From the NCBI RefSeq assembly GCF_054482525.1, contig NZ_CM137006.1: a stretch of 64,000 bases of DNA. One strand, 5' to 3'. Positions 6,538 through 56,313 of this stretch are shown piece after piece; within the stretch, counting starts at the first letter, position 1, and every line of letters starts with the position of its first letter. Below the pieces are notes generated by a model. That model saw only the letters and a list, made by a program, of their open reading frames with translations, made no database searches and was not told the origin of the DNA. A program made the translations under genes and the position numbers.

Positions 6538-6550
6538 CCAGGAGGTTTAT

Positions 6551-9198: not shown

Positions 9199-9234
9199 TA
9201 AATATCCTGGCATTACTAATGCCAGGATATTTAA
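9199..9234. terminator. Bidirectional hairpin terminator between convergent ykgH and ykgG
   Basis: Perfect 15-bp inverted repeat AAATATCCTGGCATT / AATGCCAGGATATTT with a 3-nt loop. Confidence 0.6.
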
Positions 9235-9340
9235 AGAAGAGGAGCATAACCATGACAGAACGGGGTTAAGTCAGGTTGTCCTTAGCGCTATTCGCAACCT
9301 CGTGCCGCCTTCAGGTTTATGTCCAGACTTCATATCTCTC

Positions 9341-11456: not shown

Positions 11457-11466
11457 CTTTATATCC

Positions 11467-12186: not shown

Positions 12187-12712
12187 AACTAATACTCCAT
12201 TACTTCATGCCCATTTATGCCCGATGGTTCCCCCCACCGGGGGATCAATCATCAATAAATATGGCGTTCTTTTTTAATTGGCTAGCAACATACCACCCCT
12301 CATTTGTATGACAAATGATAATCTTTCATCCAAACTTCAAATGCAATAACTAATTTTATTTCTTTCGGCATCGCTCACATTTTATGGGGAAATCGACGAT
12401 CATTTTTGGCATAAGAAATCCATTTAAAAATGGCTACATCTCTTATACCTATTCAGAGCTACTTATTCAGGGGTTATTGAGATATACACTGATGGTGTAC
12501 AAAAAAATCACCGACAATAATCACGTATCAAGTAATAGTCGGCATTTTATTTAATTGAAGCAATTTAGTTTGCATTTTTATTTAAAAACTGAGCTAGAGT
12601 CCATCAGAAAAAAACATATAAATCCCAAACCACCGTTGGAAATAGAAATAGTTGAAAGGCTCACAACTCCCGGAATGCGGATTATCTTTGCCCTGATTTC
12701 TGGCGGTTTTAT

Positions 12713-13567: not shown

Positions 13568-13793
13568 ATCAGACTCCTGAGTAGTTTTTTGATTACAAAC
13601 ACCAACAATCTTAGTCAATAATTAATCTAATACCATCAAATAGTTAATCATGATTTTTGTTTTGTGATTCTGATTAAGAAAAAGAAAATACCAGACGATA
13701 AGACAAAATATCAAGCGTTGTGAAGAAATGTTATTTGCTCTTTTGCGTCTATAGTCATGATGTCAAATGAACGCGTTTCGACAGGAAATCATC

Positions 13794-15119
13794 ATGAATA
13801 AATATCAGGCAGTTATTATTGGTTTTGGCAAGGCTGGAAAAACATTAGCCGTCACGCTGGCAAAAGCAGGTTGGCGTGTGGCTCTCATCGAACAATCAAA
13901 TGCAATGTATGGCGGGACCTGTATTAATATCGGCTGTATCCCAACCAAAACATTGGTTCATGACGCACAGCAGCACACAGATTTTGTCCGTGCCATACAG
14001 CGTAAAAATGAAGTGGTTAATTTTTTACGTAATAAGAATTTTCATAATCTTGCGGATATGCCCAATATCGACGTGATCGACGGCCAGGCGGAGTTTATCA
14101 ATAATCATAGCCTGCGTGTTCATCGGCCTGAGGGAAATCTGGAAATTCATGGCGAGAAAATTTTTATTAATACCGGTGCACAAACCGTGGTTCCGCCAAT
14201 TCCTGGAATTACCACCACGCCAGGAGTATATGACAGCACCGGATTACTTAATCTAAAAGAATTGCCTGGGCATTTAGGTATTTTGGGCGGCGGATATATT
14301 GGCGTTGAGTTCGCCTCTATGTTCGCTAATTTTGGCAGCAAGGTAACCATTTTAGAAGCAGCTTCGCTGTTTTTGCCTCGGGAAGATCGGGATATTGCTG
14401 ATAATATCGCGACGATTTTACGCGATCAGGGCGTCGATATAATCCTCAATGCCCATGTGGAGCGAATCAGTCACCATGAAAATCAAGTGCAAGTGCATAG
14501 CGAGCACGCCCAACTGGCGGTGGATGCACTGTTAATAGCTTCCGGTCGTCAACCGGCTACCGCTTCGTTACATCCAGAAAATGCAGGTATCGCAGTAAAC
14601 GAGCGCGGGGCAATTGTCGTTGACAAGCAATTACATACCACCGCAGACAATATTTGGGCGATGGGAGATGTTACCGGCGGGCTGCAATTTACTTATATTT
14701 CACTGGATGATTACCGCATTGTGCGTGATGAGTTGCTGGGAGAAGGCAGACGTAGTACTGATGATCGGAAAAATGTGCCTTATTCCGTATTCATGACACC
14801 GCCACTGTCCCGGGTTGGTATGACAGAAGAACAGGCCAGAGAGAGTGGTGCTGATATTCAGGTGGTGACATTGCCTGTAGCTGCAATTCCGCGCGCCAGA
14901 GTGATGAACGATACCCGTGGGGTATTAAAAGCGATTGTTGATAATAAAACCCAACGTATATTAGGGGCATCACTGCTGTGTGTTGACTCCCACGAGATGA
15001 TTAATATAGTGAAAATGGTGATGGATGCCGGGCTGCCTTATAGCATATTACGCGATCAGATATTTACTCATCCGTCGATGAGCGAATCACTCAATGATCT
15101 ATTTTCATTACTCAAATAA
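13794..15119 (+). CDS. rclA: Flavoprotein disulfide reductase RclA
   Basis: 441 aa starting MNKYQAVIIGFGKAGK; FAD/NAD Rossmann motifs and CINIGC redox-active site. Confidence 0.93.
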   Translation: MNKYQAVIIGFGKAGKTLAVTLAKAGWRVALIEQSNAMYGGTCINIGCIPTKTLVHDAQQHTDFVRAIQRKNEVVNFLRNKNFHNLADMPNIDVIDGQAEFINNHSLRVHRPEGNLEIHGEKIFINTGAQTVVPPIPGITTTPGVYDSTGLLNLKELPGHLGILGGGYIGVEFASMFANFGSKVTILEAASLFLPREDRDIADNIATILRDQGVDIILNAHVERISHHENQVQVHSEHAQLAVDALLIASGRQPATASLHPENAGIAVNERGAIVVDKQLHTTADNIWAMGDVTGGLQFTYISLDDYRIVRDELLGEGRRSTDDRKNVPYSVFMTPPLSRVGMTEEQARESGADIQVVTLPVAAIPRARVMNDTRGVLKAIVDNKTQRILGASLLCVDSHEMINIVKMVMDAGLPYSILRDQIFTHPSMSESLNDLFSLLK

Positions 15120-22578: not shown

Positions 22579-23128
22579 TGAGATAATTTCCTGATGAACG
22601 AATTAACGAACATAGGCAGACACAAATAGTGGCGTCTGCTTGTCAGAAAAACCGGGAAATCCCCGATTTCCTTTTCCGCAGAAAAGGAAATACCTTTATG
22701 TAAGAAAGTACACCGCCACCTAATATATCCAGTGTCTGTAGCCACTCATCAGGTGGTTGGGCGCGGGATTATATTTTTATTTATGGGTAAAAATTTAGCT
22801 TTTTGTGCAAGTCATTAAATAGATACTTAAGTTATATTTCTTACTCTGCGGGCAGTGAATAATTCATTATTCAGAGTGAATAATAATGACCCGTCTTTAA
22901 TTAATCGCTATTGGGAATACGTCGAAGTAGGTATATACACCAGGATAAACCAATATATTTTTTATGGATATTCATTTTCCTTCATCAGACTGTGAATTGC
23001 AGGGATATCGAACTTGCACGACTCATCGCAACACTCAAGCAGATTTATGAATTTCGTTCATAACCCCTGACAAATCCTGCCGTCTAATCGAGCTCTTCTC
23101 TTTACGTTATGCTTCTCATGAACGATAA

Positions 23129-25995
<2,867 letters not shown>

Positions 25996-29998: not shown

Positions 29999-30100
29999 AT
30001 GAAAGAGAATAAAGTACAGCAAATCAGTCATAAACTGATTAATATCGTTGTTTTTATCGCAATTGTAGAATACGCCTATTTATTTCTCCATTTCTATTAA
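29999..30100 (+). CDS. ykgR: Small membrane protein YkgR (33 aa)
   Basis: ATG AAA GAG AAT... encodes MKENKVQQISHKLINIVVFIAIVEYAYLFLHFY; too short for the ORF track. Confidence 0.75.
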   Translation: MKENKVQQISHKLINIVVFIAIVEYAYLFLHFY

Positions 30101-30420
30101 TAACGGCAGTAAACTGTTCACTTCAGTGATATTTAAAATATGCATCCTCTCCCTTTTTGTAAGTAATTATTATATCCGTGGGAGAGGAATACACGCTGTC
30201 AGGTAATCAATCATACTGCGATAAATCATCGGCCAGTAAAGTGGAGATAACCTCCATTCTCGAAAAAGCGAAACTATCATCAATCACTCATCCAGGCGTT
30301 TATGGGAGCGTCGCCAACGGCTGCTAACAATGCCAGACTTCCCCGTTGGGGAAATTCCACATACCACAAATAGTCACAGGGATTGGGTGTTGAAATGATC
30401 CGGATGAGCATGTATCTTTA

Positions 30421-30715: not shown

Positions 30716-30855
30716 TGAAAGTCCTTAACTCTCTGCGTACCGCAAAAGAACGCCATCCAGACTGTCAGATTGTGAAGCGAAAAGGACGGCTATATGTGAT
30801 TTGTAAATCTAATCCACGTTTTAAGGCCGTTCAGGGTCGTAAGAAAAAACGTTGA
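30715..30855 (+). CDS. ykgO: Ribosomal protein L36 paralog (zinc-independent)
   Basis: 46-aa [49 protein letters not shown]; ATGA overlap with the ykgM stop. Confidence 0.88.
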
Positions 30856-30905
30856 TTCAAAATTCGACGGATTAATGATATTTGTCTGATTAATAATCAG
30901 ACCTG

Positions 30906-30946
30906 ATTAATGTTGGTGTATTTATTACACCAGCATTAATTTTCTT
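30906..30946 (+). terminator. Rho-independent terminator of ykgM-ykgO
   Basis: 15-bp stem ATTAATGTTGGTGTA / TACACCAGCATTAAT followed by TTTCTT. Confidence 0.65.
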
Positions 30947-31869
30947 GGGGATGTATCTTCCTGTTCATTTAAGGTCAACTGCCTGACGTTTCTCTCCGAA
31001 TATTCCATTATATTAATGTTGACTTGTTAACCAGGTGCGCCCTGTATGCTGGCATCAACTCTCTTTTAGACTGAACACGCCACTCAGTTTCCTCCCTTTG
31101 CGACGCAGCCTGCATTTACACTCAAACGGTTAAGATGATAAATGTGGTAAATCTGTTGGTACTGACATAAAAACGTTTACGTCACAGGAACGGCCTGATC
31201 CACCGGTAACCCCATCGCCGACGTTCGAGTGCCAGTTAGAGTAACGCGCACAGATGACTGAATGCAGTGCCCTGGCAAAGAGGCCATCGTTCCTGTGACA
31301 ACTGGCAGTCTTCGTTTAACTTCACTTAATTTGGCTCTTAGGGGGCTTACCGGACAGATGACGTACTTACACCTGTTTAATTTTTCATCACTTATTGGGA
31401 TGAACACCCATAACCATTTTGTGCGGCATGTTAATCCATTAAAACACCTTACTGATTGGCAAATCATCTTTAATTATGACTCATGATAGTTTTATATTCT
31501 ATTTCTTATCATTTAAACTTGTTTTTTTACTAGTCCATCACACAACACATTAAGACTATTCCTAACACCTCAGGGCAAAGTTCCTGGCTAATATAAAATG
31601 CAAGTAAGAATTGAACGTTATATTGCCAATAACCTTATGAAACTGAATGTCTTTTTCTTCTTATCAAAAAAGCAATATTTTCATTTTTTGTAAATATTGA
31701 CTTAACCATGGAATTCCTTTTCTGTTCACATATTGACACTCATCAGGAAAAAAACATAAATTTAAACCTAATCGAAATAATTAAAACTTAATCTCGTTTA
31801 ACCTATATTGATATGTGCTACGTATCTTATTTACTTCCGATTTACTAAAGAAACTGAATGTACCTGTAA

Positions 31870-40642: not shown

Positions 40643-41332
40643 ATGAGCAACCAAGGCGAATACCCCGAAGATAATCGGGTTGGGAAGCACGAGCCGCACG
40701 ATTTTAGTTTGACCCGTCGCGATCTGATTAAAGTCAGCGCCGCAACGGCGGCGACCGCCGTGGTTTATCCTCATTCTACGCTTGCAGCAAGCGTTCCGGC
40801 AGCTACACCCGCGCCCGAGATAATGCCCCTGACACTTAAGGTGAACGGCAAAACCGAGCAGTTGGACGTTGATACCCGAACCACGCTACTGGACGCTTTG
40901 CGTGAAAATCTGCATCTGATCGGTACCAAGAAAGGTTGCGATCACGGGCAGTGCGGAGCCTGTACCGTGCTGGTCAATGGTCGCAGGCTTAATGCCTGCC
41001 TGACGCTTGCAGTCATGCATCAGGGGGCAGAGATCACCACCATTGAAGGCCTGGGTTCACCAGAGAATCTTCACCCCATGCAGGCGGCCTTTATCAAGCA
41101 TGATGGCTTCCAGTGCGGCTACTGCACCTCCGGGCAAATTTGCTCATCAGTTGCGGTGCTAAAAGAGATTCAGGACGGCATTCCCAGTCACGTCACGGTC
41201 GATTTGGTTTCCCCTCCAGAAAGAACGGCCGATGAGATCCGTGAACGTATGAGCGGCAACATCTGTCGCTGTGGTGCATACGCTAACATCCTTGCCGCCA
41301 TTGAAGATGCTGCGGGGGAGATAAAATCATGA
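40643..41332 (+). CDS. paoA: Periplasmic aldehyde oxidoreductase 2Fe-2S subunit PaoA (Tat signal)
   Basis: 229 aa; twin-arginine motif TRRDLIK; two [2Fe-2S] Cys clusters. Confidence 0.93.
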
Positions 41333-42285
41333 AGGCGTTTACCTATGAACGAGTGAACACCCCGGCCGAGGCGGCACTTAGCGCTCAGCGCGTACCCGGC
41401 GCAAAATTTATCGCTGGCGGGACCAATCTGCTGGACCTGATGAAGCTGGAAATTGAAACGCCAACCCACCTTATCGATGTGAACGGGCTCGGGCTCGATA
41501 AGATTGAAGTGATCGACGCGGGTGGGCTGCGCATCGGCGCACTGGTACGGAACACCGACCTGGCAGCTCACGAGCGCGTGCGTCGTGATTACGCGGTACT
41601 CTCCCGCGCCCTGCTCGCTGGCGCGTCTGGTCAGTTACGCAATCAGGCAACCACCGCAGGTAATCTGCTCCAGCGCACGCGCTGCCCCTATTTTTACGAC
41701 ACCAATCAGCCCTGCAATAAGCGCCTGCCCGGGAGCGGCTGCGCGGCACTTGAAGGCTTTAGCCGTCAGCACGCGGTGGTAGGCGTAAGCGAAGCCTGCA
41801 TTGCCACCCATCCGAGCGATATGGCGGTCGCAATGCGGTTGCTGGATGCGGTGGTGGAAACCATCACGCCGGAGGGAAAGACTCGCAGTATCACACTGGC
41901 TGATTTTTATCACCCTCCGGGAAAAACGCCGCACATTGAAACCGACCTGCTTCCCGGTGAGCTTATCGTTGCGGTGACGTTACCTCCGCCGCTCGGCGGA
42001 AAACATATTTACCGTAAGGTGCGCGATCGCGCCTCCTACGCCTTTGCCCTGGTATCGGTCGCAGCGATTATTCAGCCTGACGGCAGCGGGCGCGTCGCGC
42101 TGGGCGGAGTAGCACATAAGCCCTGGCGCATTGAGGCTGCGGATGCTCAGCTATCCCAGGGGGCGCAGGCCGTATATGACGCGCTGTTCGCCAGCGCCCA
42201 TCCCACCGCTGAAAACACCTTTAAACTCCTGTTGGCGAAGCGAACGCTTGCCTCCGTACTGGCTGAAGCGAGGGCACAGGCATGA
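41329..42285 (+). CDS. paoB: Aldehyde oxidoreductase FAD-binding subunit PaoB
   Basis: 318 aa; ATGA overlap with paoA. Confidence 0.93.
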
Positions 42286-44480
42286 AATTTGATAAACCCG
42301 CAGGGGAAAACCCGATCGATCAGCTGAAGGTTGTCGGTCGTCCCCATGACCGCATCGACGGACCGCTGAAAACTACCGGCACGGCACGCTACGCCTACGA
42401 ATGGTATGAAGAAGCTCCCAACGCCGCCTATGGCTATATCGTCGGTTCCGCCATTGCCAAAGGACGCCTCACCGCCCTCGATACGGACGCCGCGCAAAAA
42501 GCGCCGGGCGTACTGGCTGTCATTACCGCCAGTAACGCCGGGGCACTCGGCAAAGGCGACAAAAACACCGCCAGCCTGTTAGGCGGCCCCACTATTGAGC
42601 ACTATCATCAGGCCATTGCGCTGGTAGTGGCTGAGACCTTCGAACAGGCGCGAGCGGCGGCCTCGCTGGTGCAGGCGCACTATCGCCGTAATAAAGGAGC
42701 TTACTCCCTGGCGGACGAAAAACAGGCCGTCAGTCAGCCGCCGGAAGACACGCCCGATAAAAACGTTGGTGACTTTGACGGGGCTTTCACCTCCGCTGCG
42801 GTGAAGATTGATGCTACCTACACGACCCCGGACCAGAGCCATATGGCGATGGAGCCGCATGCCTCGATGGCCGTCTGGGATGGAAATAAGCTTACCCTCT
42901 GGACCTCAAATCAGATGATTGACTGGTGCCGCACCGATCTGGCAAAAACGCTGAAAGTGCCCGTGGAGAATGTGCGTATTATCTCCCCGTATATCGGTGG
43001 AGGGTTTGGCAGCAAGCTGTTCCTGAGAAGCGATGCGCTGCTGGCGGCCCTCGCCGCCCGTGCGGTGAAACGTCCGGTTAAAGTGATGCTCCCCCGCCCC
43101 ACTATTCCCAATAACACCACGCACCGCCCCGCCACCCTTCAGCACTTGCGTATCGGTGCCGACCAGAGCGGGAAAATCACTGCTATCTCACATGAAAGCT
43201 GGTCCGGAAACCTGCCCGGCGGCACGCCGGAAACGGCGGTACAGCAAAGCGAATTTCTTTACGCAGGGGCGAATCGTCATATCGGCCTGCGGCTCGCCAC
43301 GCTTGATTTGCCGGAAGGGAACGCCATGCGTGCGCCCGGCGAAGCCCCCGGTCTGATGGCGCTCGAAATCGCGATCGATGAACTGGCGGAAAAAGCGGGC
43401 ATCGATCCCGTCGAGTTTCGCATCCTGAATGACACTCAGGTTGACCCCGCCGACCCGACGCGCCGCTTCTCTCGCCGTCAGCTTATCGAGTGCTTGCGCA
43501 CCGGAGCGGATAAATTTGGCTGGAAGCAGCGCAACGCCACACCCGGACAGGTACGCGACGGAGAGTGGCTAGTCGGCCACGGCGTCGCGGCGGGCTTTCG
43601 CAATAATCTGCTGGAAAAATCGGGGGCTCGGGTTCACCTCGAACCAAACGGCACCGTTACCGTGGAAACGGACATGACCGACATTGGCACCGGCAGCTAC
43701 ACCATTCTGGCCCAGACGGCAGCGGAAATGCTTGGCGTACCGCTGGAGCAGGTTGCGGTTCACCTCGGCGATTCCAGTTTCCCGGTTTCTGCGGGGTCTG
43801 GTGGACAATGGGGCGCAAATACCTCCACCTCCGGCATTTACGCCGCCTGTGTGAAGCTTCGCGAAATGATTGCCTCGGCAGTCGGGTTTGATCCTGAGCA
43901 GTCGCAGTTTGCCGACGGCAAGATTACCAACGGTACCCGAAGCGCCATGCTACATGAGGCCACCGCAGGCGGCAGACTGACAGCGGAAGAGAGCATTGAA
44001 TTCGGAACACTGAGCAAGGAGTACCAGCAGTCGACCTTTGCCGGGCATTTTGTGGAGGTCGGCGTGCATAGCGCGACGGGAGAAGTTCGGGTCCGGCGTA
44101 TGCTCGCTGTGTGTGCTGCAGGACGCATCCTGAATCCGAAAACTGCACGCAGCCAGGTCATTGGCGCAATGACTATGGGCATGGGTGCGGCACTGATGGA
44201 GGAGCTGGCGGTGGATAACCGTTTGGGCTACTTCGTTAATCACGATATGGCGGGGTATGAGGTGCCGGTCCATGCGGATATCCCAAAACAGGAGGTGATT
44301 TTCCTGGATGATACCGACCCCATCTCCTCCCCGATGAAGGCCAAAGGTGTCGGTGAGCTGGGCCTGTGCGGCGTGAGCGCGGCTATCGCCAACGCGGTGT
44401 ATAACGCCACCGGTATTCGGGTACGGGATTATCCCATCACTCTGGATAAGCTGCTCCATAAACTGCCGGATGTGGTTTAA
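42282..44480 (+). CDS. paoC: Aldehyde oxidoreductase molybdopterin-binding subunit PaoC
   Basis: 732 aa xanthine-dehydrogenase-family Mo subunit; ATGA overlap with paoB. Confidence 0.93.
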
Positions 44481-44489
44481 GGAGGAACA

Positions 44490-45446
44490 ATGTCATACTC
44501 GCTTTTTGACAAAGACGAGCACTGGCATAAGCCAGAGCAGGCGTTTCTCACCGATGACCACCGGACCATTCTGCGCTTCGCCGTAGAGGCGCTAATGTCC
44601 GGTAAAGGAGCGGTGCTGGTGACGCTGGTGGAGATACGCGGCGGCGCGGCGCGCCCGCTCGGGGCTCAGATGGTGGTGCGCGAAGATGGTCGTTACTGCG
44701 GTTTTGTCTCTGGCGGCTGCGTGGAGGCCGCTGCCGCTTTTGAAGCGCTGGAGATGATGGGCTCAGGCCGCGATCGCGAAATTCGCTATGGCGAAGGTTC
44801 GCCGTGGTTTGACATCGTTCTGCCCTGCGGCGGTGGGATCACGCTGACGCTCCATAAACTACGCTCGGCACAGCCTCTGCTCGCCGTGCTGAACCGCCTG
44901 GAACAGAGAAAACCGGCGGGTCTGCGCTACGATCCGCAAGCACAATCGTTGGTGTGCCTGCCCACGCAAACCCGGACGGGCTGGAATCTCAATGGCTTTG
45001 AGGTGGGGTTCAGGCCATGCGTCAGGCTGATGATTTACGGACGTTCTCTTGAGGCGCAGGCAACCGCGAGTCTTGCAGCAGCCACAGGCTATGACAGCCA
45101 TATCTTCGATCTTTTTCCGGCCTCAGCCAGCGCTCAGATCGATACCGATACGGCGGTCATTTTGCTGTGCCATGATCTCAACCGGGAGCTGCCAGTGTTG
45201 CAGGCCGCGCGAGAAGCAAAACCCTTTTATCTCGGCGCATTGGGCAGCTATCGAACCCACACTTTACGTCTGCAAAAGCTCCACGAGCTGGGATGGTCCA
45301 GGGAGGAGACAGCGCAAATCCGGGCACCCGTCGGGATATTCCCCAAAGCCCGGGATGCGCATACTCTGGCACTCTCCGTGCTGGCAGAAGTCGCCTCTGT
45401 ACGTCTCCATCAGGAGGAGGATTCATGCCTGCCCCCGTCGTCCTGA
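44490..45446 (+). CDS. paoD: XdhC-like Moco insertion chaperone PaoD
   Basis: 318 aa. Confidence 0.9.
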   Translation: MSYSLFDKDEHWHKPEQAFLTDDHRTILRFAVEALMSGKGAVLVTLVEIRGGAARPLGAQMVVREDGRYCGFVSGGCVEAAAAFEALEMMGSGRDREIRYGEGSPWFDIVLPCGGGITLTLHKLRSAQPLLAVLNRLEQRKPAGLRYDPQAQSLVCLPTQTRTGWNLNGFEVGFRPCVRLMIYGRSLEAQATASLAAATGYDSHIFDLFPASASAQIDTDTAVILLCHDLNRELPVLQAAREAKPFYLGALGSYRTHTLRLQKLHELGWSREETAQIRAPVGIFPKARDAHTLALSVLAEVASVRLHQEEDSCLPPSS

Positions 45447-45500
45447 TCCTTGCGGCCGGGCGTGGAGAGCGCTTTCTCGCCTCCGGGGGAAATACCCATA
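45425..45500 (+). pseudogene. N-terminal stub of a MobA/MocA-like molybdenum-cofactor nucleotidyltransferase gene
   Basis: ATG overlapping the paoD end encodes MPAPVVLILAAGRGERFLASGG (nucleotidyltransferase P-loop-like), then similarity is lost in an AT-rich junction. Confidence 0.5.
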
Positions 45501-45625
45501 AATTAAGAGAAAAATCTGCAGTAGCCGTTTTAGAAAATCACCTAAATCGTTTAAAAGAGCACCCAACCCATAGTGGGCGCTCATCGCCTTGTGTAACTTA
45601 TTCAGCAACGCGCGCCCTCGCCGGA

Positions 45626-46819
45626 CTAAAGCGCACCGGCCTTCTGGCGTGCGGTAACAAAGGTCAGTACGCCAGCGCAAAGGAGCAGCACGCTACTCAT
45701 AGCAAACGTGCTCTGCCAGCCAAGGCGGTCAAATACGATGCCTCCTGCTGTTGATCCAAGGGCGATGGAGAGCTGAATCACCGCGACCATGAGCCCGCCT
45801 CCGGCTTCGGCGTTGTCAGGCAACGTACGCGCAATCCATGTCCACCATCCGGTTGGCGCGGCGGTGGCCAGCATGCCCCAGAGTCCTAACAGCAGCGAGA
45901 CCGTCCAGACGTGATGCCCGGTCAGCATCAGACCGATAGCAATGACGGCCATCAGTCCGGGTATGGCCATCAGCGTGGGGTAGAATTTTCTGTTGAGAAA
46001 TGCCGAAACAACCAGCGTGCCAATAAAACCGGCCACGCCGATAATCAGCAAAATCAACGACAAGCCTAAGGAATTAACCCGTGTCACCGACTCCAGAAAC
46101 GGGCGCACATAGGTGAATAGTGCAAACTGCCCCATGAAAAACAGGCAGCAGGCTATCATGCCGACCACAACCATGCGGCGGCTAAATAAGCGGAATACCG
46201 CGCCACATGAAGTGTGGCTTTTATTCGCATCCATGCTTGGCAGGCTGATGCACTGCCAGATAAAGGCGACAACCGCGATGGGCACCAGGCACAAGAAAGC
46301 GCCTCGCCATCCGACCGTAGCCCCCAGATAGCTTCCCAGCGGTGCGGCCACGACCGTCGCCAGCGCATTACCGGCGTTGAAAATTGCCAGCGCACGCGTG
46401 ACCTGATGCTGCGGCACCAGACGAATCGCCGTTGCCGCTGACATCGACCAGAATCCGCCAATAGCCACACCAATCATCGCACGACCGACCATATACATCA
46501 GATAACTGGAAGCCAGCGCAATAATAAGCCCCGATACGGCCATCAGAACCGTCATCCCCAGCAGCAGGAACTTACGATTCATCTTTCCAGCTAGCGTTGA
46601 AAGCGTCAGGCTGGTCAGAACCGCCAGCGCGCCGGAGATAGCAATCCCCTGCCCTGCCAGCCCCTCCGTCACGCCTAAATCGCGGGTAATCGGCGTGAGC
46701 AGGCTGACGGGCATAAATTCAGAAGCAATCAGCACAAACACGCACAGGGTCATGGCAAAAATACCGCCCCAGTATGCGCGCTGATGATGAGGTGATAGTG
46801 TTTGGCTTAGTGTCGACAT
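45626..46819 (-). CDS. MFS transporter (12-TM, efflux-type)
   Basis: 397-aa hydrophobic protein with MFS-like repeats. Confidence 0.85.
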   Translation of the reverse strand: MSTLSQTLSPHHQRAYWGGIFAMTLCVFVLIASEFMPVSLLTPITRDLGVTEGLAGQGIAISGALAVLTSLTLSTLAGKMNRKFLLLGMTVLMAVSGLIIALASSYLMYMVGRAMIGVAIGGFWSMSAATAIRLVPQHQVTRALAIFNAGNALATVVAAPLGSYLGATVGWRGAFLCLVPIAVVAFIWQCISLPSMDANKSHTSCGAVFRLFSRRMVVVGMIACCLFFMGQFALFTYVRPFLESVTRVNSLGLSLILLIIGVAGFIGTLVVSAFLNRKFYPTLMAIPGLMAVIAIGLMLTGHHVWTVSLLLGLWGMLATAAPTGWWTWIARTLPDNAEAGGGLMVAVIQLSIALGSTAGGIVFDRLGWQSTFAMSSVLLLCAGVLTFVTARQKAGAL

Positions 46820-46894
46820 AGTGAAATTTCACAAAGATCAGGATAAAAGCCACCAGCCTATGGCCGGTGGCTTTGCATCAATTCAGGAGAGGTT

Positions 46895-48031
46895 TTATTT
46901 CAGTTTGGTCTGGAAAAATTGTTCGAACTTCGCGAAAGGTATTTTTCCGGCCACGTTATCGTACAGGTCCACGTGATTTGCCCCTGGTACCACCACCAGC
47001 TCTTTGTCGTTACTGCCAACCACCTTGTAAGCATCTTCAGCAAAATAGCGTGAATGCGCTTTCTCACCGGTCACAATCAGCGTCGGGATGGTGATTTCAC
47101 TGGCGTAGCTCAACAGCGGCATATTCATAAATGACAGCGGCATCGTTGCCGTCCACGCCCCGGTAGAGTTAACGGAACGTTCGTGGAAGCCGCGCGGCAT
47201 GCGATAGTAGTCAAAGAACTCTTTCAGTACCGGATGAGGATTTGCCGGCAGCGTTTCTGGCAGAATGCGCTCGCCCGCACTGACCTTGCCGTTGCTGTCG
47301 ACATTAATATCATGACCACCGTGAGCGAACGTTCCGCTCTGCGCATCCTTCCAGCGCTGTTCATTCAGATATTGCAGAACGGCACGACGGTCGGCGGTAG
47401 AATAACGGTCTTTGCCATCCCCCACACCATGACCCATCGCCCGGCTCATGTCATACATCACGCTGGTAGCTACCGCTTTAACGCGGGTATCCATCGCCAC
47501 GTCGTTCAGCGCCATGCCGCCCCAGCCACAAATACCGAGCAGCCCGATACGGTTGCGATCTACCTCTTTTTGCAGCCCTAAGAAATCCACCGCCGCGCTG
47601 AAATCTTCAGTGTTGATATCCGGTGAGGCGACGTTTCGCGGATAGCCGCCGCTTTCCCCGGTGTAAGAAGGATCGAACGCCAGGGTAACAAACCCTCGTT
47701 CCGCCAGCGTCTGCGCATACAAGCCGCTGGATTGCTCTTTCACCGCGCCAAATGGCCCACTGACCGCAATCGCCGCCAGCTTGCGATCGCCACGGTCTTT
47801 AGGCAGGTAAAGATCGCCCACTAAGGTGATGCCATATCGGTTCGGGAACGAGACTTTACGGTGATCGACTTTCTGGCTCTCGGCGAACGTTTTATCCCAT
47901 TTATCTGCCATGGACACAGGGGCATTAGGATTGGTTGAATCAGCATAACTCATTGTCGTGACTCCACTTAATGATGCGAAAAGCAGCATGGTCGGCATCG
48001 CGGTTTTTAGCGTGCGGGTGAAGGCTTTCAT
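46895..48031 (-). CDS. Secreted alpha/beta-fold hydrolase (GxCxG), paralog of the 27219-28139 gene
   Basis: GICGWGGMALN elbow; N-terminal signal peptide ...LLFASLSGVTTMSYA; start may be 48052. Confidence 0.75.
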   Translation of the reverse strand: MKAFTRTLKTAMPTMLLFASLSGVTTMSYADSTNPNAPVSMADKWDKTFAESQKVDHRKVSFPNRYGITLVGDLYLPKDRGDRKLAAIAVSGPFGAVKEQSSGLYAQTLAERGFVTLAFDPSYTGESGGYPRNVASPDINTEDFSAAVDFLGLQKEVDRNRIGLLGICGWGGMALNDVAMDTRVKAVATSVMYDMSRAMGHGVGDGKDRYSTADRRAVLQYLNEQRWKDAQSGTFAHGGHDINVDSNGKVSAGERILPETLPANPHPVLKEFFDYYRMPRGFHERSVNSTGAWTATMPLSFMNMPLLSYASEITIPTLIVTGEKAHSRYFAEDAYKVVGSNDKELVVVPGANHVDLYDNVAGKIPFAKFEQFFQTKLK

Positions 48032-48218
48032 AAAAATCCCCATAAAAAACAACAGAGAGATACAGGTTTCCGACGGACAACGCTGCGGTGCTTTACTTTG
48101 ATGGGGTCATTATAGTGAGCAGAATTAGTGCTGATTAGGGGGCGATTAATGCTAAGATTAATACCATATTGTTATAAATTAATGCGGAGATTGCCGGCAT
48201 GAAGGGGGGGATGTTTCA

Positions 48219-49103
48219 ATGGCGAAAAGGGAGAACTACAACGAGCTGTACCTGTTTATGCAGGTGGTGCGGGAAGGCAGCTTTACCGCAGCGGCTCAGC
48301 GGCTGGGTCTTGCTCAGTCAGGAGTCAGCCGTTCTGTTCGCGAGCTTGAAGAAAGGCTGGGCGTCCAGCTGCTAGTGCGCACCACGCGTAAACTGTCGCT
48401 GACACAAGCAGGCGAGCAGCTCTACCAGAAGACGGCATCTGGATTTGAAATGTTAGATCTTGGGCTTGCCACGCTGGCGCACTATCGAGAGACGCCCTCC
48501 GGCACGGTGCGTATCAATGCCAGCCAGCACGCGATTGATAAATGCCTGCTGCCAAAGCTGGCGGTATTTAAACAGAGATATCCTGATATCCGGCTTGAAC
48601 TGATAAATGAGAGCCGGTTCGTCGATATCATCGAGGAAAGATTCGATGCAGGTGTCCGCCTGGGGCCTGAAGTCGGCCAGGGTATGGTCGCGGTACGCAT
48701 CACGCCCGATATGGAGATGGCAATTGTGGGGACTCCGGAACATTTTCGTCGTTATGGTTTTCCGCAAACCCCGGCGGATTTAAAGGCGCATCCCTGTATC
48801 GCCTATCAGTTTGCCGACGGCAGCGTATACCAGTGGGAACTCAATCAGGATGATAAAAAAATCACTCATCGCCCTGAAGGGCAATGGGCCCTATCCGACA
48901 GCTATATGGAAGCAGAAGCCGCCCGGCTGGGCCTCGGATTGGCCTATGTTCCTGTTGAACTGGTCGCGGATGATTTAGAACACGGTAACCTTATCAGGGT
49001 GTTGCAGCGTTACAGCCTGCGAATGGAGGGATTGTTTCTCTATTACCCTCATCGCAACGTCTCCCCCGCTCTGCGGATGGTCATTGATACATTGAAAATC
49101 TGA
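48219..49103 (+). CDS. LysR-family transcriptional regulator
   Basis: 294 aa; HTH VVREGSFTAAAQRLGLAQSGVSRSVRELEE; divergent from the hydrolase gene. Confidence 0.85.
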   Translation: MAKRENYNELYLFMQVVREGSFTAAAQRLGLAQSGVSRSVRELEERLGVQLLVRTTRKLSLTQAGEQLYQKTASGFEMLDLGLATLAHYRETPSGTVRINASQHAIDKCLLPKLAVFKQRYPDIRLELINESRFVDIIEERFDAGVRLGPEVGQGMVAVRITPDMEMAIVGTPEHFRRYGFPQTPADLKAHPCIAYQFADGSVYQWELNQDDKKITHRPEGQWALSDSYMEAEAARLGLGLAYVPVELVADDLEHGNLIRVLQRYSLRMEGLFLYYPHRNVSPALRMVIDTLKI

Positions 49104-49316: not shown

Positions 49317-49590
49317 ATGATGAAAACTGATCATTATCGTTGTTTTTGTTGCAATAGTAGAATACGCGTATTTATTCCTCCATCTCTATTAATAACGGCA
49401 ATAAACTGTTCACTTCACTGATATTTAAAATATGTATCCTTTTCAAGCTGTTCAGCGGCGTAAGAAAAAGCATTAATTATGAATTCGACGATTTAACCAT
49501 TTCAGTCTGATTGGTAATCATCTGTGATTAATGCTGGTCTATTGATTACGCCAGCATTAACCGCTTAGGGATGTATTCTTCCTGTTCATA
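49317..49590 (+). repeat. Degenerate second copy of the ykgR-(ykgM-ykgO) locus: frameshifted ykgR paralog fused to the 3' end of an rpmJ2-like gene plus its terminator
   Basis: 49327-49441 matches 30040-30150 (ykgR 3' part and downstream) and 49441-49590 matches 30824-30966 (ykgO 3' end and terminator), about 85-90 percent identity by eye, same orientation. Confidence 0.7.
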
Positions 49591-49793
49591 TAGCCCTCGA
49601 AAAAGAGAGAAAATAAAACTGTGTCCAATATTAATTTACCACTCCAGACCGAAGCATCGGTGGGATTAGCAGGACGACTGGTACAGAAGGATGGTATAGC
49701 GTCATTTGTCGGGCATTCCATTGCCATAATAATGACAATTTTGAATCAATAGACATGCTTCTTGATCATGTCTTAAAAATTAGACCATGAGCC

Positions 49794-50024
49794 TTACGAA
49801 GCATCATTTTTACTGACTGGTATTAACTTTGCTATCATATAAACTCTATTCTTAAAAAACGCGCCCAGAATTTTATATGATTTTCCTTGTTTTGCTGCCT
49901 GTAAAGAAATTTCTTTTTCAGTGCTGTCGATGGTTGAACCGACGGCAGTAATCGTTTTGGCGACGCTACTGAAGGATATTAAAGACAGTGTAACCACAAC
50001 AATTAAAGAATAGATAATATTCAT
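49794..50024 (-). CDS. Small periplasmic DUF1471 (YhcN/BhsA-family) protein
   Basis: Signal peptide MNIIYSLIVVVTLSLISFSSVA and C-terminal ...GKSYKILGAFFKNRVYMIAKLI pattern. Confidence 0.5.
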   Translation of the reverse strand: MNIIYSLIVVVTLSLISFSSVAKTITAVGSTIDSTEKEISLQAAKQGKSYKILGAFFKNRVYMIAKLIPVSKNDAS

Positions 50025-50239
50025 GCTAATTCTCCTGACAATTGAGAGGATGAGTTTTATATACAAAGGCATTAAATATGAGTCATGTTTACTCCCTGTG
50101 AAAATAATCTTACTGTAATTAAACCTTCATCTCCTTCGGAGTGAGCAATGCATAATATAATGCATCTTGCTATTCAAAACAGTGGATATAAATTTTCCTT
50201 CCGACCTATTTAATAAAACGTGAATATAAAAGTTATTCT

Positions 50240-50791
50240 TCAGTTTGCAGATGCAGTAGGTCTGATGGTAATTTCGGTTGTATCAACGCTTTCGGGAGAT
50301 TCAATAATATGCCTTACAGCACGGGCAATATCCGCGGGTTGAAGTGCAACAGAACGGTAGGCGTCTATTGACTTCATGGTTTCCACATGGGTAATGGTTG
50401 AAGCCAGTTCACTTTCTACAACCCCAGGATTTACGCAGGTCACACGGATTTTCGAGCTTTCCTGCCGTAAGCCATCCGAAATAGCCCGTACTGCAAATTT
50501 TGACGCGCAATAGACTGCGCCTGTGGGCACAACAGAAAGGGCACCAATAGAACCAAGATTGATTATCTGACCGGAACCCTGTGCTTCCATCACCGGAAGT
50601 ACAGCGCCAATTCCCCAAAGTACACCTTTGATATTCACGTCAATAGTGAGTTCCCATTCATCTTGTTTTCCTGCTGCAAGCGGTGAAAGCGGCATAACGC
50701 CCGCATTATTGATAAGAACATCAACTCGCCCCCAGCTATCCAGCGCTGCTTGCACGAAATCTGCCATGGACTGTCGGTCTGTGACATCCAA
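50240..50791 (-). pseudogene. 5'-truncated short-chain dehydrogenase/reductase gene
   Basis: Contains NNAG, the catalytic Ser and YxxxK but lacks the N-terminal TGxxxGxG Rossmann segment (about 60 aa missing); frame abuts the integrase fragment. Confidence 0.6.
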
Positions 50792-50794
50792 CTT

Positions 50795-50962
50795 GCATTT
50801 TCAGAAATGGGAGGCTGGGAGTCTATCGAAATGGTTCGTCGATATGCTCACCTCGCGCCTAATCACCTTACCGAACACGCACGGCAAATAGACTCAGTCC
50901 TGAACCCATCGGTCCCAAATTTGTCCCAGTCAAAAAAAAAGGAAGGTACTAATTATGTGTAA
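50795..50962 (+). pseudogene. 3' fragment of a tyrosine recombinase (phage/P4-type integrase) gene
   Basis: Encodes ...[24 protein letters not shown], the integrase C-terminal motif carrying the catalytic Tyr; no upstream integrase body. Confidence 0.6.
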
Positions 50963-51174
50963 CTTATTGATTTAAATGGTGCGATAATAGGAATATAACA
51001 CACCACATATATTCTTTGATAAATATGACTATTTTCTTGTTTCATCTTTATAAATGCCCCCTTTTGTGCCCCCACCTTGTTTTTCATGCGACTCGATGAG
51101 ACTTTCATCGAGTCGTTAATCTCATCAAATTCTTCACGTATCGTGGAAACCTTCGCAGATCTCCATCCCCTCAC
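50953..51174 (-). CDS. Hypothetical small protein coupled to the toxin gene
   Basis: 73-aa ORF whose ATG overlaps the toxin stop (ATGA). Confidence 0.3.
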
Positions 51175-51539
51175 AGCCGTGATCGGCTAAGAACAATATT
51201 ACTTACCTCCCTGTAAGAACACCGGCTCATCAGCCCGCACGCTTTCCTGGCTTGAAGAATGTCTGTCGCAGTCAAATATGGTGCTTGTACCTGAGAGGTA
51301 AATCCATTGCGATCAATACGAACTAACTCATATTTCTCTACCAGAAAGTTAACGGCATTAGCCAGAGTGATACCGGCATCGATATGCTCCTTTATAACGG
51401 TTTCATCGCTAAAAGGTGTGTCGCTTAGCATTAGGCCATAGTGCTGCTCAAGCAGACGAGTAAGTAACATTTGCCAGATTGCAACGGGCGACAGACAGGG
51501 CTTCGCCGCCCGCGAAATTGTAGCAGGTAGATTTTTCAT
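51171..51539 (-). CDS. CbtA/YeeV/YkfI-family toxin (cytoskeleton-targeting type IV TA toxin)
   Basis: [36 protein letters not shown]... is collinear with CbtA; ATGA overlap with the antitoxin stop. Confidence 0.85.
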
Positions 51540-51877
51540 GTTTGCTCTCGTGAAATTTGTTTGCGCTGAGGGGGATAAATGGCGATGTATACGTAGCCGC
51601 AACTACCAAGGGTATCGGCTTCGCAGGTGAAACCGTTGTGGTACAGGGTGACACAGTGGGCATGGCGGGGATTCATTTCACCAGTGGTCAGCATCGATTC
51701 CATCTGACTGATAAAATGTGGAAATACGACATCCAACTTCAGGCTTTCGGCATCACTAAACTTACCGGTGATACTTGCCCGGTCAGCCAGATAGTGCAGC
51801 CGGTTGCCCTCCTGCACCAGACGTGCTCCCAGGCACGGCGTGATATCCCGCTGCAGGCCCCATGTGGGGTTGCTCAT
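51536..51877 (-). CDS. CbeA/YeeU/YfjZ-family antitoxin
   Basis: ...[20 protein letters not shown]...[10 protein letters not shown] matches the YeeU family. Confidence 0.85.
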
Positions 51878-51894
51878 TTATAACCTCTTTATTG

Positions 51895-52116
51895 TCAGTT
51901 CAGGGTAATACTCACCAGACAGGTATAAGGTCCGTTGCGATCCTGGCGGCGTTCGACGTATACCGCCAGCACACTGGAAATGTCAGGAACCACCTTAACG
52001 GTGTATTGACAGACACTGCCATGCCACTGGTATCTGCCAGTGCAGAATCGAACAATGCGGGAGGCCGGATGCTGACGGTAAATCGTCATCGCCAGGCGTT
52101 TACTGATAATTTTCAT
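51895..52116 (-). CDS. DUF987 protein (YeeT/YkfH family)
   Basis: MKIISKRLAMTIYRQHPASRIVRFCTGRYQWHGSVC... Confidence 0.75.
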   Translation of the reverse strand: MKIISKRLAMTIYRQHPASRIVRFCTGRYQWHGSVCQYTVKVVPDISSVLAVYVERRQDRNGPYTCLVSITLN

Positions 52117-52124
52117 GTAATACC

Positions 52125-52604
52125 TCAAAGCAGACCATGTTCAGCGAACGACAATATCTGCGTACCACCGACGATAAGGTGGTCGAGCACCCGGATCTCC
52201 ACCAGCATCAGTGCATGTAACAGTCGTTGAGTGATAGCCTTGTCGGCCTGGCTTGGAGTCACTTCTCCGGACGGGTGGTTATGGGCAAATATCACCGCCG
52301 CCGCATTAAAGTACAGCGCGCGTTTCACCACCTCGCGAGGATGAACCTCAGTGTGACTGATGGTGCCGGTAAAGAGCGTTTCGTGGGCAAGCAGCTGGTT
52401 CTGGTTATTGAGGTACAACACGACAAACACTTCGCGCTCAAGGGGGCCCATTTTCAGCCTGAGCCAGTCGCGGGCAGCCTGAGTCGAGGTGAATGCCACA
52501 CCCGGTTCTAGCAAGTGCTGGTCAAGCAGAACCAAGGCTCGCTTAATGGTACGCAGTGCTGGTAACGGCAGTTCAGGTGTAAACATAGTCAGTTGTTTCG
52601 CCAT
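52125..52604 (-). CDS. RadC-like JAB-domain protein (YeeS/YkfG/YfjY family)
   Basis: HNHPSGEVTPSQAD JAMM-like motif. Confidence 0.85.
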   Translation of the reverse strand: MAKQLTMFTPELPLPALRTIKRALVLLDQHLLEPGVAFTSTQAARDWLRLKMGPLEREVFVVLYLNNQNQLLAHETLFTGTISHTEVHPREVVKRALYFNAAAVIFAHNHPSGEVTPSQADKAITQRLLHALMLVEIRVLDHLIVGGTQILSFAEHGLL

Positions 52605-52978
52605 AGCAAATATCCTTAATTAAAGGTGGTGAGAATGACACTGGATTCGGCACGACAGGCGTGATGGTCGTATTCGAGTAGGAAGATGGTAATATGATTG
52701 CGGAATGCATGAGGAAACGAAGCCAGCAATGACCCAGTGACTCACACCCAATCACAGTGTTAAAAATAAAAAAATCCCGCAATCCAGCGAGGATTGCATT
52801 GGGATAATATCTATCTGTAATTATTTAGAAAAAATGTTTTTTTTCTGAGGTCTATTATAAATTTTTTTCGTTCAGAAACTTCTCGGATATGATCATCTGC
52901 TGAGTACCAAGAACGGACATTGTACCCAATAGTGAGTTAATCATTGGAACGTTGATCACCCCAATTGAAAATTTTCAC

Positions 52979-53006
52979 AATATCCAATATCCAATATCCA
53001 ATATAT
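52979..53006. repeat. Tandem 7-bp repeat CAATATC x about 4
   Basis: CACAATATCCAATATCCAATATCCAATATATC, about 27 bp left of the IS end. Confidence 0.7.
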
Positions 53007-53032
53007 CGGTGTAGAGGGCTTCTCTCTTAAAC

Positions 53033-54230
53033 TGATCCTACCCGCGTAATGTGGACACGCTCCTAAGCGAGATTCTGGTTTTCAAACTGTTTCGGGCTGA
53101 GGCCGCCATAATCGCTGTGACGCCGCCAGCGATTGTAATCGCACTTAATCCGCCGTCCGCATGATTTCCCGGCTGATAAAGCGTTCTCCGTGGATACACT
53201 CGACTTTTAACGAGTGTAAGAAGCTTTCCGCACAGGCATTATCATAACAGCAACCTTTTGCGCTCATGCTGCCATGCAGATTATGTCGTTTCAGCAGAGC
53301 CTGATAATCCGCTGAGCAGTACTGCCCGCCACGGTCGGTGTGAATTCGCCGCCACAGCGCCATCTGCAGTGCATCACAGGCAAGTTCTGCCGTTATTTGC
53401 GAGGACACCAACTAGCCAATAATAGCACGCGACCACCAGTCTATAACCACGGCAAAGTATAACAAGCTTTCATCGATGCGAAGGTACGTGATGTCACCAG
53501 CCCACTTCTGGTCCGAGCCACTAGATCTGAAGTCCTGCTTCAGCAGATTCTCCGGCACTGGCTGGTCGTGAGCACAGTAGATTAACGGGCTGAACAGACG
53601 TGAGGTTTTTGCCCGCAGGCCCTGACGACGCGAACTGTTGCTATCGTTTTGATGTTGTATTCCGGCGGCTCGTCTGCAAGACGAGCCGCACCATAACGCT
53701 GTTTTGCCTCAACGAATACCTTACAGACAGCTTCATTGAAGACGCACCGGAACTGTTGCCGATGGCTCAGTTGGGGACGACGCAGACACCAGGTATACCA
53801 GCAGCTGTGCGCCACGCACAGCACCCGACACATAGCTTTGATACTGAACTCAACCTGATATTTTTCGATAAAGATATACTTCATTTCAGGCGCTACGCGA
53901 AGTATGTCGCGCCCTTTTGGAGAATAGCCAACTCATTATCCCGCTCAGCCAGTTGACGTTTGAGGCAGGCAATCTCCGCTGCTTGTGCGCTCTCTCTCAG
54001 AGGATATTGTCTGGTGCAGTTGTTTGTAGAGCTGGGAATCGTAAAGGCTGAGTTCACGGGCGGTAGTGGCCACACCGAGACGTTCGGCCAACTTAAGGGC
54101 TTCTTCACGAAATTCAGGCGTGTGTTGTTTGCGTGACTTTTGTTGATTGATGCTGATTTTGTCATGTGAGCTACCTCTGATTGAGAGTTTACTCGCTTAG
54201 TCCCGTGTCCACTATTGGTGGGTAGGATCA
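53033..54230 (-). mobile_element. Degraded IS3-family insertion sequence (IS3-like) with frameshifted orfA/orfB
   Basis: Terminal inverted repeats TGATCCTACCCGCGTAATGTGGAC (left) and TGATCCTACCCACCAATAGTGGAC (right, reverse complement); minus-strand ORF fragments match IS3 InsE (…[23 protein letters not shown]) and InsF (MKYIFIEK..., ...[14 protein letters not shown]...CCYDNA...), split by frameshifts; no target-site duplication. Confidence 0.8.
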
Positions 54231-54579
54231 TTATTGATCAAAGATCAAGATGTGCAAAAATTCCCAAGTAAAGCCTTATCTGAACCTTCCGTTTTGTTAG
54301 CACATCTGACATTATTATTCAGTCAAATCCCTTCAGTTGATTGAGTTCAAAGGCGGTAGCTATGCTGATTTGCATTACTGTAAAACTTTTAAAGCAGAGG
54401 TTTATATAGAATTGCTCTGTTGAATAAATTAGTAGGTTCACATGGATTTTGAGTTCACCAAGCATGACAACTTGCGTTCTTCAAGCGATCCTGAGAAGCC
54501 TATTATATTAGTGTACAAGATGCCTCACGTGGCACCACTGAATTTTACATTAGACTCTATCCATTAAAACGATAAAATT

Positions 54580-56313
54580 ATGTACATAGCAAAAATTAAA
54601 TTTACAAATTTCAAATCATTCAAAGAGATGTCTTTTGAGTGCAATGATAAATTCAACATAATTGTTGGTGAAAATAATATTGGTAAAAGCACATTATTTG
54701 AGGGGGTAAGTTTATGGAAATATGCTTATGACAACCTTATTCAAGAAAAAAACAAAAACAAATTCTACAAAGCTTCAACTAACTACTACATTACCTATTC
54801 TACACTCGATCAAATAAGACTTGTTGACGATATTGATATTTTTAACGACCCAAAGAATAGCTCCGCATCAATATGCATTACAATTAAAGATGAACAAAAT
54901 GAATTTGATTTAGAGATTAGATTTGAAAAGCCAGGGATTAAAAATTCATACTTACGGATATTTAATAGCAATGGTTCTGATAATGACACACAGTTTTCAA
55001 ACTTTGAACGATTCTCAAACTATATAAAAGAAAAGGATTGCACTCTAAAAGATGCCATTTACATTTACCAAACAAGACCAATATCAACTATTTTTAGAGA
55101 TGAGCCATTTTACAATAATGCGCAGATAGAGAAAAAAATAAATATTGGAAAGTCACATGATGTCTTAAGGAATAAAATATTAAAAACCGAAAATACTCAA
55201 GCCACAAGGGTTGCACAAAAATTTGAAAATCTTGAGATTCGCCTACAAAAAGTCCTTGGTGAAAACTATATCTTAAAATTTAAGAATAGAAATCGAATCG
55301 ATGATGAGTATGTTAAAATAACTGCAACAAAGGAAAACGGGAAAGAATTGGAAATATCACTTATGGGTAGTGGTTTTTTGCAAGTCTTAGAGATATTTTC
55401 AACAATTGAGTATATGGAAAAGAATTCAACCGGTATTAACCTCATTCTTATCGATGAGCCTGATTCACATATCCACTCAAATTTACAAGCAAATTTAATT
55501 GACGAACTAAAGCAACAAACAGCATGTCAAATTTTTGTCATAACACATAATGACAGACTAACATCAAAAGCTAATGAAGGTGAGCTTTTTTATCTAAATC
55601 AGATAGTTAAGGATCTTGGTTTATTGTCTCACCTTGAAATATCTGATTATTCAAAAGTTAAAGATGGTCTAGCTAATGTACTAACAGCTATAAATGATGG
55701 AGATGAAACACCCATTGTTATAACTGAAGGAAAAACGGACCAGAAAATTTTAACAACTGCTTGGGAAAAGCTAAACCCAGGAACTCCTATGCCTTTTAAA
55801 ATAATTTCATCCGGCATTCAAATTGAAGAGGAAAAAAGAACTGGGTGCGCAGAGGCAGTTAGAAGATCTTTAGAATACATTTCAACATTAACTGATAGAA
55901 CAATTATCGGTTTATTTGATAATGATCGGGAGGGAAATGAGCAGTTCAAAGGATTAAATCGTTCTATTTTTGAACCTCATGACCTGCAAAATAACTCCCG
56001 AAAACATCAGATAAAAAATATCTATGGGCTTATTCTTCCCGTTCCTGTGCATAGAGAACGTTTTGTACAAAACAATTCTTTAACGCAGCGTTACTTCGTA
56101 ATTGAACAATATTTCCAAGATGAAATATTACTACAGCATAACATGAAAGGTGAGTCAATATTAGGTACTGAGGTATTTTTTGTTAATGACTCAAGAAAGA
56201 ATGAGTTTTCAGAGTCAACCAATGACCTTCCGGTAGAATGCTTTGGGGATTTTAGTATTTTATTCGATAAAATTTCCGATTTATTGGCTAACAATAGACC
56301 AGAAAACACTTGA
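54580..56313 (+). CDS. OLD-family protein: N-terminal ABC-type ATPase fused to a C-terminal TOPRIM nuclease-like domain (P2 Old / Gabija GajA / PARIS-like); candidate anti-phage defense protein
   Basis: 577 aa; Walker A GENNIGKST (aa 30-38), Walker B LILIDEPD (aa 288-295), H-loop ITHND; TOPRIM-like ITEGKTD (E383) and FDNDREG (D447, D449); strongly AT-rich codon usage. Confidence 0.7.
   Translation: MYIAKIKFTNFKSFKEMSFECNDKFNIIVGENNIGKSTLFEGVSLWKYAYDNLIQEKNKNKFYKASTNYYITYSTLDQIRLVDDIDIFNDPKNSSASICITIKDEQNEFDLEIRFEKPGIKNSYLRIFNSNGSDNDTQFSNFERFSNYIKEKDCTLKDAIYIYQTRPISTIFRDEPFYNNAQIEKKINIGKSHDVLRNKILKTENTQATRVAQKFENLEIRLQKVLGENYILKFKNRNRIDDEYVKITATKENGKELEISLMGSGFLQVLEIFSTIEYMEKNSTGINLILIDEPDSHIHSNLQANLIDELKQQTACQIFVITHNDRLTSKANEGELFYLNQIVKDLGLLSHLEISDYSKVKDGLANVLTAINDGDETPIVITEGKTDQKILTTAWEKLNPGTPMPFKIISSGIQIEEEKRTGCAEAVRRSLEYISTLTDRTIIGLFDNDREGNEQFKGLNRSIFEPHDLQNNSRKHQIKNIYGLILPVPVHRERFVQNNSLTQRYFVIEQYFQDEILLQHNMKGESILGTEVFFVNDSRKNEFSESTNDLPVECFGDFSILFDKISDLLANNRPENT

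Follow-up and report, generated by a model that had tools for sequence, protein, structure and literature searches.

PaoC of Escherichia coli contains the MCD form of Moco, which is made by MocA and is received from MocA by PaoD (PMC2997495, PMC3909100), and the operon has been described with paoD as its 'last gene' (PMC3909100). In other bacteria, genes for XdhC-family chaperones are often followed by a gene for a MocA homologue, for example in pucA-pucB (PMC2997495). Such pairs, in which the order is that found in pao, include pucA-pucB of Bacillus subtilis and the xdhC-mocA pairs of Arthrobacter pAO1 and Oligotropha; these are intact and serve other enzymes that belong to the xanthine-oxidase family, whereas the second gene of the locus described here is destroyed.

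E. coli MocA (YgfJ) supplies MCD to PaoD and PaoC, so that its client pathway is that of the pao cluster, and it shares with the intact relatives described below the PF12804 fold and the N-terminal loop hhh(T/L)AAGxxxR...K.L. Its gene (mocA, ygfJ, b2877) sits in the yqeB/ygf cluster, unlinked to pao, whereas the intact pao-linked gene is coupled to paoD and encodes a protein scoring 84 bits against a MocA equivalog cutoff of 186. MobA, the molybdopterin guanine dinucleotide synthase, belongs to the same superfamily and has the same N-terminal loop, but gave only weak matches to the intact relatives. The loop of the stub reads LAAG, not LAGG, the form that reportedly marks MobA.

The open reading frame overlapping the 3' end of paoD

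The sequence analysed, referred to as the window, was a stretch of 64,000 nucleotides, in which paoA, paoB, paoC and paoD spanned nt 40643-45446 on the plus strand (Table 1). An ATG at 45425-45427, 19 nt upstream of the paoD stop codon (45444-45446), opened a second frame sharing 22 nt with paoD. The initial annotation had let this ATG overlap the paoD stop; an overlap with the paoD 3' end was indeed present, but the stop codon itself was not overlapped by the ATG. It had also let similarity to nucleotidyltransferases end after about 25 codons, and a short N-terminal match was found, measuring 27 codons. They represent codons 1-27 of a gene for a pao-linked MobA/MocA-like NTP transferase and carry the N-terminal nucleotide-binding motif hhhLAAGxGxRF...HKL.

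Table 1. Features at and downstream of the 3' end of paoD in the window
Feature	Position (nt)	Strand	Description or basis
paoD	44490..45446	+	318-aa ORF; annotated paoD in matching E. coli records; XdhC-family Moco insertion chaperone; last intact paoABCD gene
Shine-Dalgarno-like sequence AGGAGGAGG	45412..45420	+	inside paoD, 4 nt before the stub ATG; read from the sequence
Homologous stub, codons 1-27 (MPAPVVLILAAGRGERFLASGGNTHKL)	45425..45505	+	tblastn, family profile, alignments to intact genes
Read-through ORF, 109 aa	45425..45754	+	starts with the stub peptide; residues 28-109 unrelated sequence
CATAA microhomology	45497..45501	+	left end of the 6,134-bp K-12-type deletion; three-way comparison of window, K-12 and O157:H7
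AT-rich spacer, 120 nt	45506..45625	.	GC 38-47%; single copy per genome; interval from stub to MFS stop; no alignment to intact relatives
Hairpin GAGCGCCCA-loop-UGGGUGCUC, then UUUUAAA	45550..45582	-	RNA fold, 9-bp stem
MFS transporter gene, convergent	45626..46819	-	annotated MFS, 375 aa in matching records; first gene of the block abutting the stub
Alpha/beta hydrolase gene	46895..48052	-	pairing with the MFS gene also seen in L088
LysR-family regulator gene (LysR1)	48219..49103	+	28% identical to YagP; not the yagP parent

Beyond codon 27, the frame continued through the spacer and then antisense to the 3' end of the MFS gene (residues 28-109). The 109-aa product had no match among NCBIfam models, and no PGAP gene was present between paoD and the MFS gene in genomes matching the window. 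In public databases, over 1,000 contigs carried the product under the name 'hypothetical protein', with a few records named 'transcriptional regulator LYSR-type', a name presumably transferred from YagP via the common 26-residue N-terminus. Because the start codon and the ribosome-binding site of the stub lie inside or beside paoD, both are still present, and a meaningless 109-aa frame therefore persists. The window was 100% identical to E. coli strain 1190 over nt 45200-45900 and to E. coli strain SCU-102 over nt 49673-56000.

As the initial annotation had described, the junction leading into the convergent MFS gene was AT-rich, GC content dropping from 58-67% to 38-40% across nt 45480-45569. 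An Rfam scan of nt 45300-45800 gave no match. The minus-strand hairpin within the spacer is predicted from RNA folding and could plausibly act as a weak intrinsic terminator of the MFS gene; its tail has only 4 U, and nothing was called in a scan with consensus terminators and promoters.

Intact relatives of the stub

Relatives were sought in a comparison set of 80 loci with PaoD relatives, one genome per species. By tblastn, the 27-residue stub peptide matched directly after the paoD homologue in 28 of the 80 loci with 55-92% identity, for example PSPVVLILAAGRGERFLASGGKTHKL in Enterobacter asburiae and MPSPVVIILAAGRGERFLASGATTHKL in Dryocola, and the matching segments were the N-termini of ORFs of approximately 180-190 aa. 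With a family profile made from 25 intact enterobacterial homologues, 26 of 28 enterobacterial pao loci were found to carry the gene in full length (profile positions 1-182), its start being offset by -30 to +42 nt relative to where the paoD match ends; the other two loci are both from Erwinia. The comparison with genomes carrying an intact gene after paoD, which the initial annotation had suggested, thus bore out its proposal. The 22-nt overlap with paoD was also seen in L085-L087 (paoD at 7063-8022, following gene at 8001-8555).

Upon searching a six-frame translation of the 64-kb window with this profile, the sole match was the stub ORF (37.5 bits, E 2.6e-10), a similarity therefore well beyond chance. 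In the alignment, MPAPVVLILAAGRGERFLASGGNTHKL occupied profile positions 1-27 of the intact family, and both the N-terminal loop hhhLAAGxGxR(F/M) and the conserved K were present.

The intact orthologues matched Pfam PF12804 (MobA-like NTP transferase) with an E-value of 2.6e-23 over positions 1-156 of 160. Among NCBIfam models, the best match of the intact protein was MocA TIGR03310 (E 7.5e-24, 84.7 bits), followed by the DVU_1551-type NTP transferase and, in third place, PucB TIGR03202; matches to the MobA models were weak (approximately 20 bits, E 2e-4 to 7e-4). These results, together with the profile match, confirm the initial view that a truncated mocA/mobA-like gene follows paoD. The nearest PDB structures were those of mycobacterial 'MocA/MobA-related' proteins, and the public names of the intact protein were 'nucleotidyltransferase family protein' and, occasionally, 'CTP:molybdopterin cytidylyltransferase'. 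The intact orthologues scored 83-85 bits against TIGR03310, below its equivalog cutoff of 186.45, and the intact protein shared 21% identity with E. coli MocA over 115 residues. Judged from these comparisons, the lost gene represents a separate pao-linked subfamily and a distant paralogue of MocA, neither a copy of mocA nor a MocA orthologue.

By its family and its coupling to an XdhC-type chaperone gene, the intact pao-linked gene presumably makes the MCD form of Moco for PaoC. In Enterobacteriaceae generally, the pao cluster is ancestrally one of five genes, the fifth being its own MocA-like gene, and E. coli is the exception. The intact gene in Enterobacter, Cronobacter or Leclercia would be a candidate in which to look at the pairing of cofactor synthase and chaperone.

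Gene loss in E. coli and the origin of yagP

In tblastn searches with intact proteins, the match ended at nt 45505. Extending the peptide past residue 27 brought no gain in profile score, and 256 of 500 shuffled tails scored equally well. At the DNA level, alignments to L003, L085 and L088 were continuous from paoA and ended at nt 45502-45505; identities of the closest intact loci were 91.3% for a Pluralibacter MAG, 89.7% for Enterobacter oligotrophicus and 92.9% for a contig labelled Salmonella. The C-terminal part of the gene was found in no frame of the 64-kb window by tblastn or by the six-frame profile search. Two segments considered as the missing 3' part, nt 31133-31315 on the minus strand and nt 49594-49749 on the plus strand, were rejected as chance matches (E>1, short, on opposite strands, approximately 30% identical). 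A search at blastn sensitivity with the last (3') 474 nt of the closest intact gene gave no match in any of 5,426 complete E. coli genomes. With 27 of approximately 184 codons left, a complete PF12804 domain of approximately 160 residues is absent. The locus is thus a fragment, a gene remnant that is truncated rather than frameshifted; the possibility raised at the outset, that correcting a sequencing error would restore an intact downstream ORF, does not apply, the remainder of the gene being absent in any frame.

The remnant was not peculiar to the window. paoD with the stub was found in approximately 3,600 of the 5,426 complete E. coli genomes, 912 with the layout of the window (MFS gene downstream) and 2,680 with the yagP layout, and all of the approximately 3,600 genomes carrying pao had the stub. 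In O157:H7, the stub had suffered a further 1-nt deletion (CCC to CC) that shifted the frame, as expected for neutral decay of a remnant. mocA was found in 5,169 of the 5,426 genomes (95%), and by counting at least 93% of the pao-carrying genomes therefore also have mocA. This agrees, as does the literature, with the earlier proposal that activity depends on a MocA encoded elsewhere. The biochemistry of PaoABC, PaoD and MocA has been worked out in a species without its own pao-linked MocA-like enzyme and reliant on the unlinked MocA.

The course of events that we regard as well supported combines a non-functional stub, an ancestral loss, the yagP fusion and reliance on the unlinked mocA. The ancestral gene would have been the fifth, translationally coupled gene of pao, encoding a MobA/MocA-like nucleotidyltransferase of 180-190 aa. 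Before the pao-carrying lineages of E. coli diversified, a rearrangement would have removed everything past codon 27, most likely through a deletion of approximately 7 kb reaching from codon 28 as far as the 3' flank of the convergent MFS gene, joining the stub to the MFS-hydrolase-LysR block. In K-12 and the majority of E. coli, a later loss of 6,134 bp at CATAA microhomology joined the stub, in frame, with a second LysR-family gene (LysR2) at its codon 188, producing the chimeric pseudogene yagP. Maturation of PaoABC in E. coli would then proceed via the unlinked mocA (ygfJ), and redundancy with mocA may be the reason why the loss was tolerated.

The deletion was deduced from L088/L089, a contig labelled Salmonella enterica that carries the 3' part of paoD followed by an intact MocA-like gene. 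In L088, the intact gene was followed in order by genes for a hydrolase, a two-component system, cupin, CMD, flavodoxin-like and abhydrolase proteins, and 7.2 kb beyond it, collinear with the window, lay a convergent MFS gene (80.8% nucleotide identity to window nt 45638-46831) and the start of the hydrolase gene. The presence of the same MFS/hydrolase pair 7.2 kb past an intact gene supports a deletion in the E. coli lineage; relative to this layout, the E. coli arrangement amounts to a deletion of approximately 7.1 kb that starts at codon 28 and reaches the MFS gene's 3' flank. The layout inferred as ancestral is that of one oddly placed relative, L088, whose paoD is itself cut by an integrase/TraI element. 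Spacer nt 45506-45625 could not be aligned significantly with what lies downstream of the MFS gene in L088; compared with that contig, a clean deletion is therefore not what is seen, nor is one proven. The initial statement that a dedicated gene appears to have been deleted is borne out by the lack of any C-terminal match in the window and in the E. coli genomes, and the L088 layout fits it.

The same spacer is an argument for replacement instead of deletion, in which horizontal transfer or an illegitimate insertion would have brought in the MFS-hydrolase-LysR block with its AT-rich flank and overwritten the gene's 3' part. The spacer, AT-rich at 38-40% GC, lacks a counterpart in L088, what lies downstream of the intact gene varies from genus to genus, the interval from paoD to thrW is a variable region rich in islands, and a similar LysR/hydrolase/MFS trio (MFS 63% identical) in the distant Frateuria suggests that the trio moves as a module. 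However, L088 has its MFS and hydrolase genes on the downstream side of the intact gene, with order and orientation unchanged and 81% nucleotide identity, so that the block seems native and a deletion suffices; replacement is accordingly considered improbable, though the likeliest of the alternatives. The stub is a case of ordinary gene loss in the variable, island-rich stretch between paoD and thrW.

The K-12 gene yagP (b0282) was located at nt 5226-5636 of L002 (NC_000913.3, nt 297381-297791) and is homologous to window nt 45425-45501. Its annotated start in MG1655 is the ATG of the stub, with the same overlap of 22 nt with paoD, and 25 of 26 residues are identical, K-12 having R16C. K-12 YagP is annotated as a 'putative LysR family substrate binding domain-containing protein' and continues in frame into residues 189-299 of LysR2, whereas the window stub continues into the spacer and sequence antisense to the MFS gene. 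Of its 136 residues, the MocA-like gene contributed 1-26 and a LysR effector-binding domain 27-136.

Identity between K-12 and the window stopped at nt 45501, where K-12 continued from ...CATAA into GTGTATCGGC.... Strains of O157:H7 had the layout of the window together with an intact LysR2 gene of 299 aa located 6 kb further on, whose codons 186-192 contain ...GTGAATCATAAGTGTATCGGC...; its sequence CATAAGTGTATCGGC accounts for the K-12 junction. From the comparison of window, K-12 and O157:H7, it follows that K-12 has a deletion of 6,134 bp between two CATAA pentamers, in frame. LysR2 was wholly absent from the window. The LysR1 gene of the window was considered as a yagP parent and rejected, sharing only 28% identity; the true parent is LysR2, intact in O157:H7. 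Strain 1190 diverged from the window at nt 49672/49673, where a separate deletion joins LysR2 at codon ~224 (yagP residues 61-136 left).

In the literature searched, no description was found of a MocA-like remnant or of the origin of yagP. The origin of the stub explains the nucleotidyltransferase motif at the start of K-12 YagP as well as the occasional LysR misnaming of the 109-aa ORF in other strains. The value of these findings lies in annotation and in the reading of the pao system; no principle is changed.

The breakpoint of the first truncation (45505/6) lies within 4-9 nt of the left end of the K-12 deletion. In addition, a collinear patch of 16 nt at 45523-45538 (AGCC-GTTTTAGAAAAT) resembled nt 101-117 of the gene of the closest relative, with p ~0.05 when position was not constrained. 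The patch may mean that the junction is more complex than a single clean break, and it may be due to chance. The nearness of the two breakpoints may likewise be chance; together with the patch, a complex junction or a fragile site is possible. It is very unlikely that the CATAA/ATTA site at codons 25-27 is a recurrent breakpoint and that YagP is an expressed chimera with a regulatory or dominant-negative role.

Slightly more doubtful still is a function for the surviving ORF as a new or chimeric gene translated by coupling to paoD, be it the 109-aa product or the 136-aa YagP with a MocA-like loop joined to a LysR effector domain. A strong Shine-Dalgarno sequence and ATG are retained, but both lie within or beside paoD and would be conserved whatever the ORF does. 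The K-12 fusion is in frame, yet the tails are unrelated between the two layouts, residues 28-109 of the shorter product consist of antisense and spacer sequence without a family match, and the stub of O157:H7 is frameshifted. Similarly, although 136 aa is the common length among 502 cluster members, the diversity of E. coli is too low for conservation of length to imply selection, and 27 residues are too few for an NTP-transferase fold of approximately 160 residues. The view that the ORF is a non-functional stub is thus the one retained here.

That the truncation is an artefact, whether because a short motif rich in glycine resembles others by chance or because a faulty assembly or sequencing error masks an intact gene, has a negligible probability, for although the match covers only 27 residues and hhhLAAGxGxR is common in nucleotidyltransferases (GlmU and IspD were matched), the 55-92% identity in orthologous position and with the same paoD overlap in 28 loci, the continuity of the DNA at approximately 91% identity from paoA through codon 27, the profile E-value, and the same junction in approximately 3,600 independent complete genomes all stand against it.

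Neighbourhood of the locus

The right end of the MFS-hydrolase-LysR block (window nt 49324-49592) carried direct partial copies of nt 30032-30148 and 30819-30971, with 91% and 77% identity, respectively. The copied sequences were the flanks of ykgO-ykgM, including a fragment of ykgR, and the intervening ykgMO genes were absent from the copy. Beyond nt 49673, the window contained a hypothetical gene, a truncated SDR oxidoreductase gene, an integrase fragment, a CbtA/YeeU toxin-antitoxin system, RadC, an IS3 remnant and an ATP-dependent nuclease gene.

In L088/L089 (nt 1-5600), the 5' end of paoD was cut, and the equivalent of window nt 44647 onward was kept. The element cutting paoD carried genes for TraI, a UvrD-like helicase, umuD/IMS-like proteins and a tyrosine integrase.

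In Frateuria defendens (L028, nt 5001-9581), a PaoD homologue (61% identity) was present with no PaoC nearby. It was followed by genes for a LysR-family regulator (42%), an alpha/beta hydrolase (41%) and an MFS transporter (63%), in the orientation opposite to that in the window. The LysR/hydrolase/MFS trio may form a module that is mobile or linked by function.

Two aldo-keto reductase genes were located approximately 6 kb downstream of pao in Enterobacter oligotrophicus and Pluralibacter (L085/L087/L003). In the window, the corresponding pair (84-87% nucleotide identity, same orientation) was at nt 23080-25149, approximately 16 kb upstream of pao. As the pair lies on opposite sides of pao, the neighbourhood has been rearranged between genera.

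In strain 1190 (L083, nt 2305-14361), a P4-like satellite island located at tRNA-Thr (thrW) abutted the variable region downstream of paoD. Its cargo included a retron St85 reverse transcriptase with its effector and a membrane protein of the RipA family.
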